This document shows, in pieces, positions 2,927 to 60,940 of a stretch of DNA of 64,000 nucleotides. The notes beneath the pieces are model-generated. The model had not been told where the DNA came from and made no database searches. It saw only the letters and a list, made by a program, of their open reading frames with translations. The stretch is taken from the NCBI GenBank assembly GCA_051294905.1, contig CM119373.1, positions 2,606,001-2,670,000 on the forward strand. The letters run 5' to 3'. The stretch's first letter is position 1. Every line of letters begins with the position of its first letter. Position numbers and translations under genes: made by a program. This stretch comes from Botryllus schlosseri. Its lineage: Eukaryota.

Positions 2927-4844
2927 ATGTAACTTTCAAATTGTCATGCATTTTGCAACAACATTGTTCTCAATTTTCAAGGTGCTGACCATTCGAGGAA
3001 GAATCACCCACCGGGAATTCACGATCCGTAAACGCGGCCGACTGTTTCTCTCCTCAAGCGGAAGCGACAGAAAAGAGGAACGAAGAGAAAAAAAGGAGCA
3101 GAAATAGCAAGAGTGTGACAAGTCGCGTCCGTTCGCTTTAATGCGTATTTCCATCCGCGAAGTAGTAGGTGGGAAAACTAATGGGCGTTTGGTTAGCGCT
3201 TATATAAGGTTGACTCCAGCGCTGTATTTGCTAAATGTTGCTATGAAATAGGGGTGGTGTCATTTGGTATCAATATTGACTATTGAAAGACCATTTGTTA
3301 GTGGTCATGGATTTGTTCGGCCAGTATGCAGTAATTTCTGATGGTCACTTCCCGGGCTTCTGTTCTCTAACCCCTCATGATTGTTATTCTGCTTCTAGTA
3401 AGACTGTCGATTCTAATGTTTTATCGTATCATTTGTGGGAGGTTTCGCTCGCTTTTTTTTACAACGTTTTGCTCTCTGCTAGGTCAATTACTGGCTGAGT
3501 ATCACTACAGCCTAAGAAACTGCACTAATTCTCATTTTAATGTCTTGCTGGTTATCTAGCTGTCAATTCTAATAATTTATTAATGTCTATACCAGTGCCG
3601 CCACTCAAATGTTTTGTTCTCTGTACACAATATTATTAGGTCTTCAGCTTTCCATGCAGAGTATCATTCCACTTTCTAGACTTGAGTATATATCTCTCCA
3701 ACTAGCTGCCAAATAACTGATTCATTTGGATTGTTGAATTGATCATTTTGGACAGAATGTGAAGAAATTTTAGTCAAGAATTCTTTTTGTGTTAGTGGCT
3801 GTTTTCAAAGAGTGCTGAAGTAGTCATCGTTGATCTTGATAATCAAGTAGAAGTGACGATTGAAGTCAGTTCTCTAGTCATATAATATTAAAAAATATAA
3901 TAATAAAACTTGAAAACATGAGTGGAAATAGTTCAGAATCGAATCCATTTTAGTAAGTATGGGCGAAAAAAATGTAGGAGTCATTCGTTAGTCGCTACCT
4001 CTGCCATTTTCGCAGTACGAATGTCTTAGCTATTAATCATCATTTTCATTTTATTTCTGCAGGGTGTTGAAAAGAAAAGGCCGCATGCTGGTTATTTAAC
4101 TGGCTCATCAGAAGATGAAACCTGATGATAAGGACTGTTTTCACTTTCTTTCTAAAGACATTCGTTCGTTTTATTTTTTACAACGGCATTATTGCCAATT
4201 CGTTTGAAATTAAATTATCACAAATGTGATTAATATGTAGTAAATAATGTGGTGTGTGTACGCAGCCGTGATCAGGGTTAAGCCCATAGTGGTAGAAAAC
4301 AGGTTATTATATCAGGATATTCTTCTTCTAACGTAGGATCTACATTCTACTCACCATGTTTAAAGGCTGTAGCATCTGCATAATATTTACATTATTGAAG
4401 GACATGGAAAAGACGTTGAATTGAGTCGACACAAAATCCCCCTTTCTACGACCTGCCAAGATCTAATATCTACTATATCGGCTCGGCTTTTCTACATCTT
4501 TGGTCTGTACTGTGTTTGCTGGGATGTTTTCCACATATGTATTTACAATGCAATGGATGGAGAGATAGAACAGAAGATTATTATGAGAACATAACGGAGT
4601 GATGAGTCGCAAAAATGAAATTCATATTTTTGTAATCAGCACAGCAGCAGCTTTCCATTGGTACCCGTTTTATCAAATTTAGCAGTTGGGAGGCCGGTCA
4701 AATATGACCGTACAATTGCCTATGGCCAAATGGAAAGTGTGATATAGATGTAGAATATCGTGGCATATGCTGGATTAAAGGCGTTACAAAGTGCATATGA
4801 AACCTTGAATTTTCCGGATCAGTAATCTACGCCGACTACTCGCG

Positions 4845-6957
4845 TTGAAGAAAAACGGTGTCTTGACAGCGGAAATATATAGCTCAATCAGACCAACGGG
4901 ATCGCAAAGACCACGCATGTATGGACTACCAAAAACTCACAATGAAAACGTCCGAATGAGACCGATACTTTCCATGATCGGGCGTGCTCAACATCAACTG
5001 GCAAAATGGCTTATCGTCATTTTGGAACCTGTTCGTGAACTGTACGGCAACGAATGTATTCGAGATTCATACACTTTCGCCAGTGAGACGCGAAACCTGA
5101 ACCTGCAGACTTCAGAAGTGTTCCTGAGCTCATTTGATATCTCTAGTCTATTTACAAACGTTCCGCTGCAACTGACTATTGATATTCGTGCGAACGCGCT
5201 TTACGGCGGTAAGCTAGCACCACCATCATTCTCGCGTAAAGTTTTCGTTGAACTTTTACAGGCAGCTACCTGTTCTGTTGAATTTAGCTTTAACGATGTT
5301 ATCTATAAACAAAGAGACGGCATATCGATGGGATCTCCCTTGGGACCTGTTTTTGCTAACACTTTCGTAGGATATTATGAGGGCGAGGGCATATTCAGGA
5401 ATGAGTTGGACTGTGATCAATTTCTCATTCACTTAAACTCGTTTCACCCGGCTCTGCTATTCACAATTGAAAAAGAACGAAATAACTCATTGCCATTTTT
5501 GGACGTTTCAGTCGAAAAACATGATACCAATAAATTTGAAACATCAATCTTCAGGAAACCGACATTCACTGGCCAATACCTTCGTTGGAATTCATTTAGT
5601 CCCAGACGCAGAAAAATCAACCTCATAGGCACGCTCGTGCATAGAGCGTTGATGATATGTTCGGGTAATAAACTGAAGTCAGAACTTGACAACATCCGCA
5701 AAATCTTACTTGATAACGGTTACCCTGAACATGTCATCAACTACGGCATAGAGAGGAAGGTAACGCAATTCAATGCAGAAAAGTCAACAGAGCCTACCGA
5801 ACGAACAACCAAAGATGTTTTCATCCATCTACCTTGGATACGGCCTATTTCCACCCGCTTTGAAAAGCAATCGATTTCAGCGGTCAATAAGTGTTACGAC
5901 ACAGTGAAGACCAACGTGATTTTCACGACAACGCAGCTGCTCCCTGCAACACGTAATGACGTGCTTCCCGCACTTCAACAAAGCAATGTAGTTTACGAAT
6001 TTAAGTGTCACTGTGATTGTGGCTACGTGGGAAGAACGTCAAAGCGCTTGCAGGAACGCATAAATCAGCATGTCCCTAGATTCTTCAGAACACGCTTGGT
6101 GAAAAGCTCACCCTTAGCGCATCCGCTCAAGATTGATGCGGAACAATCAAAGGCCATAAATTCTGCAATTAGCAATCACTTGTTGGATAATCCAGCATGT
6201 GGGAAAAATTATCGAGACGACAGATTTCGCATACTCGGGAAGGGTCGTTCCAGGGTTGTAATGACTCGAGTCATGACTTGACTCGAGTCTGACTCGAGTC
6301 ACGATATTATGATGACTCGACTAGACTCGAGTCATTTTCTCAAAATACGGCAATGAGTCGACTCGACTCGAGTCAATCAGTGTATTGACTCGACTTGGAC
6401 TCGAGTCATTGCGCATGAGTCGAATTAAGTCATGTGACTCGAGACTCAGACGGCCAAGACCGACATTTCATTGTAATTTCGAAGAATAGTGTAGTAACCA
6501 CACTATTGGGATTTCGTCTATTGGTACTGGTACTTGAAAATGCGACTAGAAACTGCTAAAAATGAGGAAAATTAGTATATTATAAATGCGAACCATTCAA
6601 TATCACCAACCAGAGTTATAAAAAGTGGATTTAGCAAGACTTTAACTGGAAACTGGTCAGTCAACACAATGACTTGGACTCGACTAGAGTCATAATACCA
6701 TGACTCGGACTCGACCCTCTGCTCGCTGACTTGGACTCGGACTTGACTCGGCGGTGAATTAAAAATGACTCGACTTGACTCGAGTCAACACTATAAAAGA
6801 GAGATTGACTTGTGACTCGGAGCCTCGAGACTTGGTTACAACCCTGGGTCGTTCACACTTTAATTTGTGTGCCTTGGAGTCGACTTTTATCAAAATGCAC
6901 CAGCCAAGGCTGTGTCAACAAAAAGAGTGCGTGTATCATCTAAAAATAGTACATTGA
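4845..6957 (+). pseudogene. Penelope-like RT/GIY-YIG ORF: 4845-6250 joined to 6855-6957 after removing the MITE; RT catalytic YxDD missing
   Basis: Excising 6251-6854 (MITE plus one TSD) restores ...ILGKGRS/HFNLCALESTFIKMHQPRLCQQKECVYHLKIVH* in frame. There is no YxDD between GSPLGP and LPFLDV. The TTG start is only the truncation point. Confidence 0.88.
6251..6846. mobile_element. hAT MITE family A (596 bp, GACTCGAGTC-rich)
   Basis: TIR CAGGGTTGTAA/TTACAACCCTG. Perfect 8-bp TSD GGTCGTTC (6243-6250, 6847-6854). Confidence 0.95.
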
Positions 6958-21411: not shown

Positions 21412-21651
21412 CTACCATCCAATAATCAACTTTTCGGATTCGTCGTAGTATCCTTTGGATTCGTCTTCATCCATACCATAGTAACCTTTCGATTCGTCGT
21501 AGTATCCTTTGGATTCGTCTTCATCCATATCGTAATAGCCACGTTCCTGGTCGTAATGCTTTCTCCTGCGGCGCCTGCTTGCCCTAACAAGATCAGCCTG
21601 TAGGACAAGCCCGATTACGACAAGAAATATCAAAGTGGTTCTCATCTGCAT
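21412..21651 (-). CDS. Secreted peptide precursor, 79 aa: signal peptide + Arg-rich segment + acidic tail with 4 GYY cassettes (paralogue 1)
   Basis: Hydrophobic N-terminus MQMRTTLIFLVVIGLVLQAD, then RASRRRRRKH, then DESKGYY repeats. Paralogue at 57354. TATA box and GT-AG intron lie upstream. Confidence 0.9.
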   Translation of the reverse strand: MQMRTTLIFLVVIGLVLQADLVRASRRRRRKHYDQERGYYDMDEDESKGYYDESKGYYGMDEDESKGYYDESEKLIIGW

Positions 21652-56000: not shown

Positions 56001-57204
56001 TATGCCCCACCGTACATCAAATTGAGTCAAGCATGGAACGACAAGTCAACCAGGGGGTTTAATGGGCAATTATCCCCAAGCCCTGTCACGAAATTGGACC
56101 ACGGGACGACAGGTCAGGGCGATTTGTCGGCAGGCAACTATCACCAAGCCCCGTCGTGTACGACCGAAGTCAGCTGTAGGTCGTGGAAAAATGCAGTAAA
56201 ATTACAATGAATTATCGTAATTCATATCCCAAGTTAAGTGTCTGGCCAGAGTACAAAGGTCAATCGAGATTCTTGGTTTGTTCTTTTTCTCTCTAGCATC
56301 AATTATTCCTCCTTTTGATTGCCGCACACAAGGTCATAAAAGTATTGCTGCAAAATTGATAATGAGGTAATTCTTTAATTATATATTATACTGATAATCT
56401 TTGTTTGTTTATTAGAAATCTCGAATGGGGGCATTCCGCACATTTATATAACTACTTCCCTGCTATAGGTGATCACAGTCTATTCACTCAAATTAGCAAC
56501 TACACTCTGATTTATAGTTGTGAACCAATCAAACGCTTCATGGCCTGTATTTTACGTTTGAGGATGAATGCGCCCAACTGGGCCCCTGTTTCAGTGAATA
56601 GGATGCTTCCGTCATGAAATAGTAAACTTTGGCAACTCGAATCCGACCGTATGGGATTCAAGTCTTGGGGCCACTAATATTTTCACATCACTGAATATTT
56701 AATCATTTGAAATGTGGAGTTCGATCTCAGTCACTTACCGCGAACGCTAATGTCACCGGGTGAGGTATGTCGTGGGTAGGCCTATCAATATTTGCAGAAA
56801 TGCGTTGTGAAAATCCCCCTTTAGCAGCAATGCGTAGCAGCAATGCGTACATTTTTATCTCTAGCGGTTTGCTCGACTAATCAGCTAAAAGTAAACAAAA
56901 TCAAGCATCTAATGATCGTGTAGCAGCCGCCACAATAATTTCAATTGCGGTGTACGCCCCTCTGATTACTTTGTTCAGAATATGATTCACGAATGAAGTA
57001 CGACCATACGGTGTTAGCATTGAAGCCAATGCACGCTCGGTAATAGGCTTTCCTATGAAACTATTTAGAGAAAATATACAATGATGATCGTCGGAAATAC
57101 TTTTGTTGGCATAATCTCGTTTAATATAGTAAAATATGATTAGCGCGATAACTCCGGGTGTTGCTGTGATGAAGTATGCTGTGGGAACAATTCCATCCAA
57201 CATC

Positions 57205-57211
57205 TATATAA
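57205..57211 (+). promoter_or_regulatory. TATA box of paralogue 2; probable TSS ~57236
   Basis: TATATAA with a TCA initiator-like site ~30 nt downstream. Conserved in three copies. Confidence 0.75.
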
Positions 57212-57276
57212 GGAGCTTCATATTTTAACCACTTCACATCAATCAAAAGCTACGATAGCACTGGAACGATACCAAA

Positions 57277-57346
57277 GTAAGAATATAGACTGCAAATTCA
57301 ATACTTTGTTATGGTGATATGATAACACTCATCTCGTTTTCCGCAG
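57277..57346 (+). other. 5'-UTR intron of paralogue 2 (70 bp)
   Basis: GTAAGA...CACTCAT...TTTTCCGCAG ending 7 nt before the ATG. Matches the paralogue 1 intron. Confidence 0.8.
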
Positions 57347-57353
57347 CTTCCAC

Positions 57354-57656
57354 ATGCAGACTAAAACCACTCTGATACTTCTTGTCGTAATCGGGCTTGT
57401 CCTGCAGGCTGATGCCTTGTGGTGGGCAAGGAGGCGCCGCTATTACGTCAGGAGAAGGCGTTACGACCAGGAGCGTGGCTACTACGATATGGAAGAAGAC
57501 GAATCGAAGGGTTACTACGGAATGAATGAAGACGAATCCAAAGGATACTACGACGAATCGAAACTTTTCTACGGAATGGATGAAGACGAATCCAAAGGAT
57601 ACTATGACGAATCCAAGGGATACTATGATGGAGCTAAAGGCTACTACGAAGAATAA
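57354..57656 (+). CDS. Secreted peptide precursor, 100 aa: signal peptide + Trp/Arg/Tyr cationic segment + acidic tail with 6 GYY and 1 LFY cassettes (paralogue 2)
   Basis: MQTKTTLILLVVIGLVLQADA (AxA cleavage site) | LWWARRRRYYVRRRRY | DQERGYY...(DESKGYY)n. Intact promoter and intron. Paralogue at 21412. Confidence 0.92.
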   Translation: MQTKTTLILLVVIGLVLQADALWWARRRRYYVRRRRYDQERGYYDMEEDESKGYYGMNEDESKGYYDESKLFYGMDEDESKGYYDESKGYYDGAKGYYEE

Positions 57657-58158
57657 GTGAGTATAGTTATCACAGTGACTGCTTGCTATATTCCTCAATA
57701 TTACCTATCAATTGTAATAGTGAGCATGGGGACTTATTTTACGTAACCTACCATCAACGTTCGATATAGTGTCAATAAGGATTCGATCTTCCACTTGACC
57801 TACATTTTATGAAACAGTGGATGATAAATTAATCAAACTAAGTGACAAACGCCATAACTTAAGTTTAGAGTAGTCGTAGAAACAATAGATTTTCACATTT
57901 CCACCCACCATTGATTATTTCACCGAGATCGGAAAATTATTCTTCGAATTTATTACTATTGTCGGGACCATTCTCATGAACTCGAGTACATTATTTTTTA
58001 TTGACACCTGTGATACATATGACCGCCATCAATTTTCGGTCGGAAAATGCATAATTTCTAGCGAATCAAAACTGAGTCCATATGAATTATGCCTATTTAT
58101 TATGGTTTGCAAGATGTAAATTTATGTATGAGTCGGTTCAGAATGACAGAGTATCAAC

Positions 58159-60461
58159 CAGTGATGAGCACCGGAGCGGAGTCGGAGTGGAGTCGGAGCG
58201 GAGTTTTGCCAATTTTGTGATACCCGGAGTGGAGTCGGAGTTTACAACAGATATTTTTCCGGAGTTTTACGGAGTATTGTTAGTTTTGCCCCCGATATCT
58301 TTCGATAGCTTTGACCAGAAGACACTATTGATTACAAACCAAAACACAGACAGTTGACACCTTGTAAAGTTGTAATATGACCGGTAACATGCAAAAATGA
58401 TTGACAAGTGCATAAAAATCAGCCATCTGCACTGCAATTGGGGACTGGAGAGTAACCTAGTGATCTAGCAAGGCATTTCCGCTGAGCAGTGTCTGTAGTT
58501 CACAAACTTGAAGACACCCAATATCGTTCGCAGCGCATCATTTTCTCCCTGCAATGAGATGCCGTCTTTGAATCCACTGCTGAATGTCACCATATTAGGA
58601 GATAAGATAGATCTTCCACGTTGCTGTCATTGCAGTCTTCTATAGTCACATCATATTCCTCCTTGCGTATTTGTTTCGTGACTAATTTTCATGCTACCCC
58701 AGTAATTGTGCGAAACATTTACAATCAGCAACATACAGCGGGGCTTCCCTATGGTACAGCCTTTGGCTACCCTGATTCTTCCAGCAAGTTGATGATCATA
58801 ACGTAATATATCCCATTATCCTGATGACATTCAATATAGTAATAGGTCCATTTTGTGAAAATGTATTCCCAACGTTGGTATCAGTTGAAACAAGATAATA
58901 TCCGATACCACTTTTGTGATAACTGTTCGCAACTTTCATCGTACTTGCAATTTGCAGTGAGAGATATCGATAATAAGTGTTACATCAATATTACCTTTAT
59001 ATCTGTGAGAAATATACATACAACAAGCAAGTATCTGGATGGAAACAATAATAACTTATGCAATGTGTTACATGATTTAATGACATTGCGACGAATTTTC
59101 GCTAGTAAGATCCGCTCACAGAGGCATACCAGCATCTAAGCCCGCTTTAAAGATTTCAACAATACATAAATCACTAAGGTAAGCTGATCTTACCCTGTAA
59201 AAACAGAATATTCCGAATTTCTGAACAGCCACACTAAATAACTACAACCGTCTGCTTTGCTCTGCTCGCATCAACTCAACTACGCTTCCTTCAATATTGA
59301 TTGACGTAGTCAGTCATCCAGAACTCTTCTGAATTTTCGTCATGTAATGTTTGGTTTGATTGAGAAATGACTTTGATGTGATATGAAAAATCAGCACCAC
59401 AATCAAGTTTCTGCTGCTGGTCTGTCTCAGACTCCAAATTCCAGATATCATGTATCAGCTTCAAAATTGGAAGTCACTAGTCATTTAGTCAACTTCAAGG
59501 AGCGTCGATCTGTGCGTCAGTGATGCATCATGTATGTTTAGTGCAGTGCAGTTCCATCAACTGTTTCATGGCGATGCGGAACTTAATTTACTGAAACCTG
59601 TGATGTGATCGTCGATTTCAGTGGTGTTAGTGGTAGTTAGTTCGAACTGACTGGTCTTCCTTCGTCGTCTTAATATAATGGCTGAAGCACCGTCGACGTC
59701 AAGTGGGTTACTCACTAAGACGCAGAAAAAGAGTGACGTGTGGAAGGATTTCACTCTGATGCTGCATGATAATAACGGCCAGTATACCGGGTTTGCGAGA
59801 TGTCAAAATTGCAATGTTCAGCTAAAGCATCACAAGTTGACAAGTGGTACGTCGCATCTTCGAAGACAAAATCGAAGCTTGTAAGAAGAATTGATCGCAG
59901 TTGAAATGCAAGTAAGCGAGTAATCAAAGGAGAAGGTGATCATGGGGAACACTGATCGCCGGGTGGAGAATACCGAAGAAGTGTCGGTTTGCCGTGGTGT
60001 TGTGCAGAAGACGTTTTGCCATCCAGATTTACGGTGAAACGTAAGTTCGATGAGGAGGCTTCGTCTTTGAAGCAGAAGCTGTCAGAGGAACTAAGAGTTG
60101 CTATCAAGTGTTATGGGCTGGCTGGCATCACCACAGATATGTGGACCGATCTAAAGGGTCGCAGTTCTATTAGCTTGACCGTCCATTTTGTTGGAGAGAA
60201 CTTGACTCTCAGAAGTAATGTTGCGACTGTTCGGCAATTCACGGATACTAAAAAAACTGGTATGAATATCAGACAGGCTATCGAAAACATCGATTGGGAT
60301 TCTTCGACAATGGTCTGAATATATTTCGGGGACTGGACAAGATTCTTCGGGTTATCTCGGAGTCTGGGATTGAGATCCCCGGAGTCGGAGGGATTTTGCC
60401 TCAGAGACCAAAGTTGTCGGAGGGACTCGGAGTCTCGAAAAGCAGACTCCGCTCATCACTG
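58159..60461 (+). mobile_element. Internally deleted hAT (Ac/hobo/Hermes-like) transposon, 2303 bp
   Basis: TIR CAGTGATGAGC/GCTCATCACTG, perfect TSD GTATCAAC, GGAGTC subterminal repeats, transposase remnants inside. Confidence 0.92.
59678..60318 (+). pseudogene. hAT transposase remnant (BED finger + start of catalytic domain)
   Basis: KSDVWKDF...ARCQNC...GTSHLRR (BED finger). LPSRFTV...GITTDMWTD...SISLTVHFV contains the first catalytic Asp. Broken and truncated. Confidence 0.88.
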
Positions 60462-60940
60462 GTATCAACATGAGTATTACTGATCACTGATCTTTTGAAA
60501 ATATTCAGATCCTCAAGAGCAAAGTCAATATCAAAGTGAAAATCTACGCACATATAAAATGAGTGTACTATAAAAATATATCTCAATCAGTATTGCAGAG
60601 TATCGTGTCTGCTTTCGGACAAGAATGCTAAGCAATGCTAAGGGAAATAATGCTGAGTATAGTACATGAAACAATGGTGGTACTATAATAGCATGTTTCT
60701 ATCAGAAATGGAGATTTATGTTAGGAAATGCCTATGCAACATTATAAACGCTTGTTCTCAATGTCGAGTTTTCACGTTGTTGTTCATCAGCAGTATATTG
60801 CGTCGAAGCGGAATTCCGAGATTGCGAAACATTACACACTCGCACTCGGTACAAATTTTTTCGTAATATGTATAGAAATGTAGATAATGACGACGGCGAA
60901 ACGCCAACGGCAAAACCTCGTATGCAAGTTACGTGGTGCG

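Follow-up and report, generated by a model that had tools for sequence, protein, structure and literature searches.

The 64-kb stretch of DNA analysed here, referred to in the following as the window, carries on its plus strand an open frame of 100 codons plus a TAA stop (positions 57354-57656), which we term the main gene. It belongs to a multigene family that uses the layout of ascidian blood-cell pre-propeptides, a signal peptide followed by a cationic and then an anionic segment, in a new sequence family, and it adds to this layout a tail of tandem Lys-Gly-Tyr-Tyr units. Our tentative reading of its function is that of a granule-stored pro-protein with two modules that would serve in defence and wound sealing, encoded by a lineage-restricted set of genes.

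The main protein starts with a predicted signal peptide of 21 residues, MQTKTTLILLVVIGLVLQADA, followed by a cationic module of 16 residues, LWWARRRRYYVRRRRY, the linker DQER and an acidic tail of 59 residues that reads GYY-DMEEDESK-GYY-GMNEDESK-GYY-DESK-LFY-GMDEDESK-GYY-DESK-GYY-DGAK-GYY-EE up to the stop. According to the -3/-1 rule the signal peptide would be cleaved after A-D-A, and the two R-R-R-R motifs inside the cationic module match what we take to be the furin consensus, R-X-K/R-R. By hand count the head has a net charge of +8, linker and tail together of -14 and the mature protein of about -6, and 16 of its 79 residues, about 20 mol%, are tyrosines. A preliminary description of this DNA had reported a signal segment and a cationic segment ahead of six Gly-Tyr-Tyr (GYY) cores and one LFY core, each with K or R ahead of it and D, G or E behind it, and the translated frame agrees in all these points. 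Its spacers DESK, DMEEDESK, GMDEDESK and DGAK are likewise all present, while GMNEDESK had been omitted from the list, and its account of a paralogue (paralogue 1) with four GYY in the same grammar matches the translation of that gene. At the nucleotide level Tandem Repeats Finder recorded nested periods of 21 (3.3 copies), 33 (2.2 copies) and 54 (2.4 copies) in 57480-57654, and in a six-frame scan of the whole window GYY preceded by K or R was confined to the main gene and the locus of paralogue 1. As the cores form tandem arrays, are found at only two loci of the window and follow the same grammar in 11 genes of the genome, the [KR]-GYY-[DGE] pattern of the main gene is not a product of chance. 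Note that an antisense frame of 131 residues at 57309-57704 was discarded as the complement of the repeat, the single-cell RNA reads being sense to the plus strand.

Transcription was assessed by comparing the reads of four RNA runs labelled with the same species, one of them bulk (X23) and three from single cells (X21, X22 and X24), with positions 56900-59300 at an identity of at least 95%, where the figures for X23 stem from about 6% of that run. In X23, 11,046 of 12.9 million records matched this stretch, with a depth above 1000 over exon 2, and all three single-cell runs covered the main gene in sense orientation (second mates on the plus strand). The transcript starts at 57236, where an extension resembling a template-switch oligonucleotide ends in 737 X23 reads. 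Splicing of intron 1 is evidenced by 829 reads in X23 (471+358) and by 4, 4 and 8 reads in X21, X22 and X24, respectively. Past position 57655/57656, 1040+400 reads of X23 and 952+175 reads of X21 enter a sequence that is absent from 56900-59300 and fits the window from 60509 onward, with 3 mismatches in 23 and directly behind an AG. Intron 2 and exon 3 would accordingly be parts of the window copy, even though most of the reads come from near-identical copies. The main gene is thus a real gene with three exons and, counted together with its near-identical copies, it is very highly transcribed. Upstream of the coding sequence, 340 nucleotides comprising promoter, exon 1 and intron 1 can be aligned among three copies, including paralogue 1, with a mean column identity of 89%.

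Two further features of the reads were noted at this locus. In 74 X23 reads 54 bases within 57514-57569 are skipped, corresponding to one repeat block of 18 residues; at the joint, 19 bases are ambiguous. Copies or alleles that differ in repeat number, and not splicing, seem to be behind this. Inside intron 2, a separate transcribed stretch at 58358-59000 is represented by single-cell reads of the opposite orientation (first mate on the plus strand), reaching a depth of up to 160 in the single-cell data and of about 30-40 in the bulk data.

The genome to which the window belongs (G000, 495.5 Mb in 219 contigs) was searched at the protein level in six frames and yielded 49 matches at E<=10. From contigs C1, C2, C3, C4, C10 and C14 we translated 24 members, and the family therefore comprises at least this number. 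All 24 begin with M-Q-x-[KRN]-T...G-L and continue into an Arg-rich, strongly cationic block of the Arg/Tyr(/Trp/His) type ahead of an acidic C-terminal part, and positions M1, Q2, T5, L10, G14 and L15 of the signal peptide are invariant in the 16 members that were aligned. GYY-type cores are found in 11 of the 24, and the remaining 13 combine this head with tails that hold no intact GYY array. In 11 of these 13 the acidic tail is free of tyrosine, with LWGRRRRRYYSRRRYG plus DRDVENREMHEDMDQVL and RCHHRRRRHHHRRRR... plus YDEENEDETPDFEVQ as examples. At two loci on contig C3, L023 (G000:C3:2709000-2710500) and L024 (G000:C3:2743600-2745000), a normal signal and Arg block precede tails (…KTNRRDTMMNPRD…) that consist of frame-shifted GYY repeat DNA, and these genes are either frameshifted pseudogenes or frame-switched derivatives.

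The 11 genes of the GYY subfamily contain 98 cores, 94 of them GYY and one each LFY, VYY, SYY and NYY. Ahead of the core stands K in 85 cases, R in 12 and S in one, and behind it there are 70 D, 21 G and 7 E. Nine codon combinations spell GYY, with GGC TAC TAC used in 41 of the 94, and three types of spacer occur; the [KR]-G-Y-Y-[DGE] cassette is thus kept at the level of amino acids through nine different codings. Four copies on contig C14 reach 163-187 residues with up to about 20 units, most of them the charge-neutral K-G-Y-Y-D-G-A. On the same contig the gene L006 (G000:C14:19234237-19237533, coding 1309-1797 on the minus strand) encodes 163 residues with, by hand count, nine units K-W-Y-D-G-[AD], whose core is Trp-Tyr and which are one residue shorter than K-G-Y-Y-D-G-A.

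Compared with a paralogue of 94% identity, the main gene shows 8 synonymous and 7 non-synonymous differences, for a ratio of the proportions of non-synonymous and synonymous differences (pN/pS) of 0.21, and three of the seven non-synonymous changes are those that turn GYY into LFY. The GYY version (GGT TAC) is present at this site in 454 of 500 and 367 of 401 X23 reads and in 88-93% of the reads of the single-cell runs. Given that both the 94%-identical paralogue and about 90% of the RNA reads have GYY at this position, LFY is a derived minority variant and not a second designed core. The codons that had been reported for it, CTT TTC TAC, described there as one base away from LYY, are correct, and the minority status of LFY weakens the precursor proposal considered below.

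In order to trace the family beyond this genome, a profile of 16 members was run against 1.84 billion representative proteins and retrieved 10 at E<=0.001. P0003, P0004, P0006, P0008 and P0011 share with the family the signal peptide and a block [FW]-x-RRRR-YY-x-RRRR-Y, and they possess acidic tails without GYY arrays. The best matches in G000 to P0003 and P0008 are only 58% and 49% identical, so that these two are not copies of any G000 gene and probably come from other organisms. Having the head and lacking the arrays, the five outside relatives mark the head (signal plus Arg/Tyr block), and not the tyrosine cassette, as the ancestral and conserved element of the family. P0005, P0007, P0010 and P0012 were dropped as unrelated repeat proteins. 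The proteins P0009 and P0013-P0015, of 133-140 residues, each contain seven to eight units K-G-I-Y-D-G-S and share 56-69% identity with the C14 arrays. They lack both signal peptide and Arg block, and their flanks look unrelated; this cluster is either a convergent minisatellite or a distant relative.

Searches for described homologs were negative throughout. The main protein (P0001) and paralogue 1 (P0002) matched no Pfam-A family at E values up to 0.1, two word-seeded protein searches (covering 55-175 and 102-328 residues) gave no match at E<=0.01, and the best score in the ESM Atlas, 0.78, was below the level of a lead. Text searches of the literature yielded no description of the family and, within the library searched, no paper containing the strings GYYDGAK or GYYDESK, and by term counts the words antimicrobial and arginine are absent from the B. 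schlosseri genome paper.

The succession of signal, cationic peptide and anionic extension that is present in the family is also that of the precursors of styelins, clavanins and botryllin from the blood cells of styelid ascidians, the group to which the host belongs, the latter two segments being a cationic peptide and a long anionic C-terminal extension in these as well. For botryllin and the styelins this layout is described in PMC9966394, according to which the morula cells of Botryllus make botryllin and keep it, in propeptide form, in granules where furin is present as well. The resemblance is one of order and not of sequence, as neither the Pfam comparison nor the two word-seeded searches linked styelins or botryllin to the main protein, and the botryllin-like genes of the same genome lie on contig C11 and encode peptides that look different. 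The head is here a block of 16 residues rich in Arg and Tyr, whereas styelin-type peptides form an amphipathic helix of 30-40 residues, and the tandem K-G-Y-Y-D array of the tail is unlike the extensions of styelins and botryllin.

From these features we infer the following course of events, including secretion, furin cleavage, the expressing cell type, the modification of tyrosines and their use by phenoloxidase. The signal peptide would be removed first, and a furin-type cut after the RRRR motifs would then free the short cationic Trp/Arg/Tyr head from the tail. Until that cleavage the acidic tail would neutralise the head, which upon release would act as a host-defence peptide. Within the GYY subfamily this tail would have grown into a tandem array of K-G-Y-Y-D-x-x, in which the paired tyrosines, possibly as 3,4-dihydroxyphenylalanine (DOPA), together with the adjacent lysines may serve as a substrate for blood-cell phenoloxidase at degranulation. 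Quinones, cross-links and possibly small phenolic fragments would be the products, with the lysine beside Tyr or DOPA acting as nucleophile in the formation of quinone cross-links. According to reviews, peptides stored in ascidian morula cells are phenoloxidase substrates in allorejection, wound repair and tunic hardening (PMC3039461, PMC5465252).

The question then arises whether the tail does anything beyond shielding the head. In a plain antimicrobial-peptide precursor the Arg-rich head would be the functional part, the tail an inert, charge-masking pro-piece and GYY the neutral by-product of a minisatellite, an explanation that we consider unlikely but that has several observations to its credit: the head is conserved in the family as well as in P0003, P0004, P0006, P0008 and P0011, all with GYY-less acidic tails, the layout parallels that of botryllin and styelin precursors, and the number of repeats varies between copies and between transcripts, as in the 54-nt variant of the 74 X23 reads. 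It accounts less well for the fact that the most common expanded unit, K-G-Y-Y-D-G-A, is charge-neutral and adds nothing to masking, that synonymous variation has left K, G, Y, Y and D unchanged, and that in the C14 copies the tail is 4 to 9 times as long as the head. Because the expanded units are neutral in charge and their five residues persist through synonymous change, the sequences suggest that the tail of the GYY subfamily has a function of its own beyond that of a counter-ion. The most economical such function would be that of a phenolic substrate for blood-cell phenoloxidase.

Several points weigh against this two-module reading. The tail is acidic, in contrast to the mussel foot proteins, the best-known DOPA repeat proteins, which are basic. 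The head of paralogue 1, LVRASRRRRRKHY, is weaker than that of the main gene and resembles a pure processing site more closely than it does a peptide antibiotic. As a single codon version, GGC TAC TAC, accounts for 41 of the 94 GYY cores, their uniformity is partly due to recent tandem duplication and not to selection, and the pN/pS of 0.21 rests on 15 differences only. Finally, only 882 of the 11,046 X23 reads are at least 99% identical to the window, most being between 95 and 99%; since so few reads reach 99%, the expression measured is that of the gene together with its closest copies or alleles and not that of the exact window haplotype.

The identity of the host bears on what such a tail might yield. 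Two tandem cellulose-synthase-like genes at G000:C9:15025585-15029719 and 15068570-15088831, on the minus strand, have a GT2 domain (PF13632) upstream of GH6 (PF01341) on the same strand, a fusion that to our knowledge is confined to tunicates among animals. All three B. schlosseri primers from PMC9966394, botryllin forward, botryllin reverse and EF1-alpha reverse, have exact matches in G000, with the two botryllin primers facing each other at a distance of 2 kb on contig C11, at a locus that encodes botryllin-like peptides. Two botryllin-like loci were found there, about 55 kb apart (G000:C11:9115436-9117435 and 9171067-9172197), one matching the primers exactly and the other with one mismatch per primer, and in their peptides 2-3 positions deviate from the published epitopes. 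The tunicate GT2-GH6 genes and the exact primer matches support the initial view that the DNA is from an ascidian, and the host is a botryllid styelid, most likely B. schlosseri or another species of that complex, and not Molgula.

The preliminary description had proposed that the gene is a multi-core ribosomal precursor of tunichromes. In the form that we considered, the K-G-Y-Y-D arrays would be multi-copy cores from which blood cells cut out Tyr-Tyr to make Mm-1-like tunichromes and botryllamides, with the signal and the Arg/Tyr block as leader. The excised [KR]-G-Y-Y-[DGE] units would thus end up as tunichromes of the Mm-1 type or as botryllamides; both versions of the idea we regard as improbable. 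The statements on which the proposal drew agree with the literature in the following points: Table 1 of PMC3039461 gives Mm-1 and Mm-2 as Gly- and Leu-DeDopa-DeDopamine (De for dehydro), styelin D does carry DOPA, and the reviews list the biosynthesis of tunichromes as unexplored or unidentified, in line with the statement that no precursor genes have been defined. A ribosomal peptide origin has itself been put forward in PMC3039461 and PMC5465252. There is also the hypothesis that tunichromes arise as fragments of DOPA proteins. The unmodified backbone of Mm-1, from Molgula manhattensis, equals the GYY core, and the dominance of this cassette (94 of 98 cores, grown to about 20 copies per gene), the very high expression and the combination of a conserved N-terminal with a variable C-terminal region are all compatible with the logic of a leader plus cores.

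The cores are, however, preceded by just one Lys, Asp being at P4, and followed by neither a basic residue nor a Gly-basic amidation signal, and these flanks do not fit the canonical processing consensus, which is dibasic or R-X-K/R-R. Recognisable processing sites on both sides of the core were not found among the 98 cores, although proteases of an unknown kind could still act there. Nine units in one paralogue, K-W-Y-D-G-A by hand count, have a core of two residues, 13 of 24 members lack intact GYY arrays in spite of the same head, and it is the head and not the tyrosine cassette that is conserved within the genome and in the five outside relatives. LFY, as a derived minority variant, offers no counterpart to Mm-2, for which the family has no Leu-Tyr-Tyr core. 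Mm-1 and Mm-2 come from a molgulid, while the present host is a botryllid styelid; the passages of PMC3039461 considered here mention tunichromes from Ascidia, Molgula, Phallusia, Styela plicata and seven further phlebobranchs only, and no Gly-type tunichrome for Botryllus. No candidate modifying enzyme is encoded in the window either, as had been noted before: we scanned 77 of its 87 stop-to-stop frames of at least 80 residues against Pfam and treated the retroelement, 59956-60318 and the GYY frames separately, which covers all but the frames that lie across the two GYY genes in a different reading frame or antisense to them. None of the 77 reached a curated Pfam cut-off, and two weak matches below threshold, to NEXCaM_BD and HHH_7, were all that was seen.

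We keep the precursor idea open because the botryllamides from Botryllus all contain dehydrotyramine. These Tyr-Tyr-derived compounds, known from Botryllus and Botrylloides, were isolated from Botryllus sp. and from B. schlosseri, and the passages on them in PMC3039461, PMC6264260 and PMC4413197 describe no pathway. They come from the same genus, and the cassette would supply Tyr-Tyr many times over, but in the botryllamides the Gly is absent and the first Tyr, devoid of its amino group, is represented by a 2-methoxy-p-coumaroyl unit, and bromination is frequent. As a link between them and the GYY gene, a Gly-dehydroTyr-dehydrotyramine intermediate could conceivably lose Gly-amide when its dehydro residue is hydrolysed and be O-methylated to give the botryllamide skeleton. 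The basis for such a loss is the general chemistry of dehydro-amino acids. If it took place, it would predict spacer peptides ending in Gly-amide, and if the proposal were true, no animal gene would have been shown before this one to encode compounds of the tunichrome or botryllamide type.

Tandem Lys/Tyr repeats and very high expression could also point to a structural, adhesive or condensate-forming component of tunic or cuticle that epidermis or tunic cells, and not blood cells, would secrete and in which Arg-Tyr cation-pi contacts would act as stickers and Lys-Tyr/DOPA as glue. There are precedents for such repeats, which are short and in tandem here as they are in mussel foot proteins and in the holdfast peptides of Halocynthia, and in Halocynthia roretzi the granule cells of the holdfast deliver DOPA peptides that cross-link into the cuticle (PMC13079984). 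These peptides, of 1.5-2 kDa, contain about 50 mol% DOPA and halogenated DOPA next to Glx, Ser and Gly. Compared by composition, as their sequences are given in a figure only, they resemble the tail but are far richer in catechol, with about 50 mol% against about 20 mol% Tyr in the main protein. The latter also differs from DOPA repeat proteins in being acidic overall (net about -6 by hand count), and we judge a structural role to be rather unlikely.

Tyrosine pairs next to Asp or Glu might alternatively be sulfation sites of an acidic or hormone-like precursor. This proposal draws solely on the acidic context of the tyrosines, and we consider it very improbable. The motif YYG-M-D-E is, in our view, loosely reminiscent of the sulfated YYGWMDF that we take to be present in cionin and cholecystokinin, a likeness that we rejected as the tail has neither amidation nor dibasic sites. 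KR, RR or KK do not flank any unit of the tail, and the G that follows 21 of the 98 cores is never succeeded by a basic residue, so that the units have no dibasic or Gly-basic amidation signals around them. A lysine is located two residues ahead of each tyrosine pair, and both expression and copy number are far above those usual for hormone genes.

The positions of the main gene, its transcript and paralogue 1 are collected in Table 1. In another part of the window, at 4809-6281 on the plus strand, an open frame of 490 residues weakly matches the reverse-transcriptase family RVT_1 (E 0.0033) and has a GIY-YIG-like motif behind it (E 0.073), an arrangement that we take to be that of a Penelope-like retroelement.

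Table 1. Location of the features of the main gene and of paralogue 1 in the window.
Feature	Position	Strand	Remark
TATA box TATATAA	57205..57211	+	25-31 nt upstream of transcript start; kept in the alignment of three upstream regions
Exon 1, non-coding 5' untranslated region	57236..57276	+	depth starts in bin 57224-57304
Intron 1, 70 nt, GT..AG, within 5' untranslated region	57277..57346	+	joint 57276->57347
Exon 2, entire coding sequence including TAA	57347..57656	+	reads and open frame
Predicted signal peptide MQTKTTLILLVVIGLVLQADA, residues 1-21, hydrophobic	57354..57416	+	strongest conservation within the family
Cationic Arg/Tyr/Trp module LWWARRRRYYVRRRRY, net +8	57417..57464	+	common to GYY-less members and outside relatives
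Linker D-Q-E-R	57465..57476	+	kept across the GYY subfamily
Acidic tyrosine-repeat tail, six GYY and one LFY, [KR]-x-Y-Y-[DGE] grammar	57477..57653	+	
LFY core, codons CTT TTC TAC	57564-57572	+	
Intron 2, 2852 nt, GT..AG, in 3' untranslated region, begins right after the stop	57657..60508	+	
Exon 3, 3' untranslated region, start mapped, end coordinate approximate	60509..60600	+	acceptor match
Paralogue 1, 79 residues and stop: signal, LVRASRRRRRKHY, four GYY, divergent end ...DESEKLIIGW	21412..21651	-	

For the phenoloxidase substrates of morula cells, namely tunichromes, DOPA peptides and botryllamide-like compounds, the review passages considered here tie no gene to any of them. The family described here provides very highly expressed, lineage-restricted candidates in a laboratory model for which single-cell atlases and colony culture exist, and each of the candidate functions predicts particular masses and cell types. 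Even on a conservative reading, an undescribed and expanded family of Arg-rich secreted peptides is added to the immune repertoire of a chordate model.

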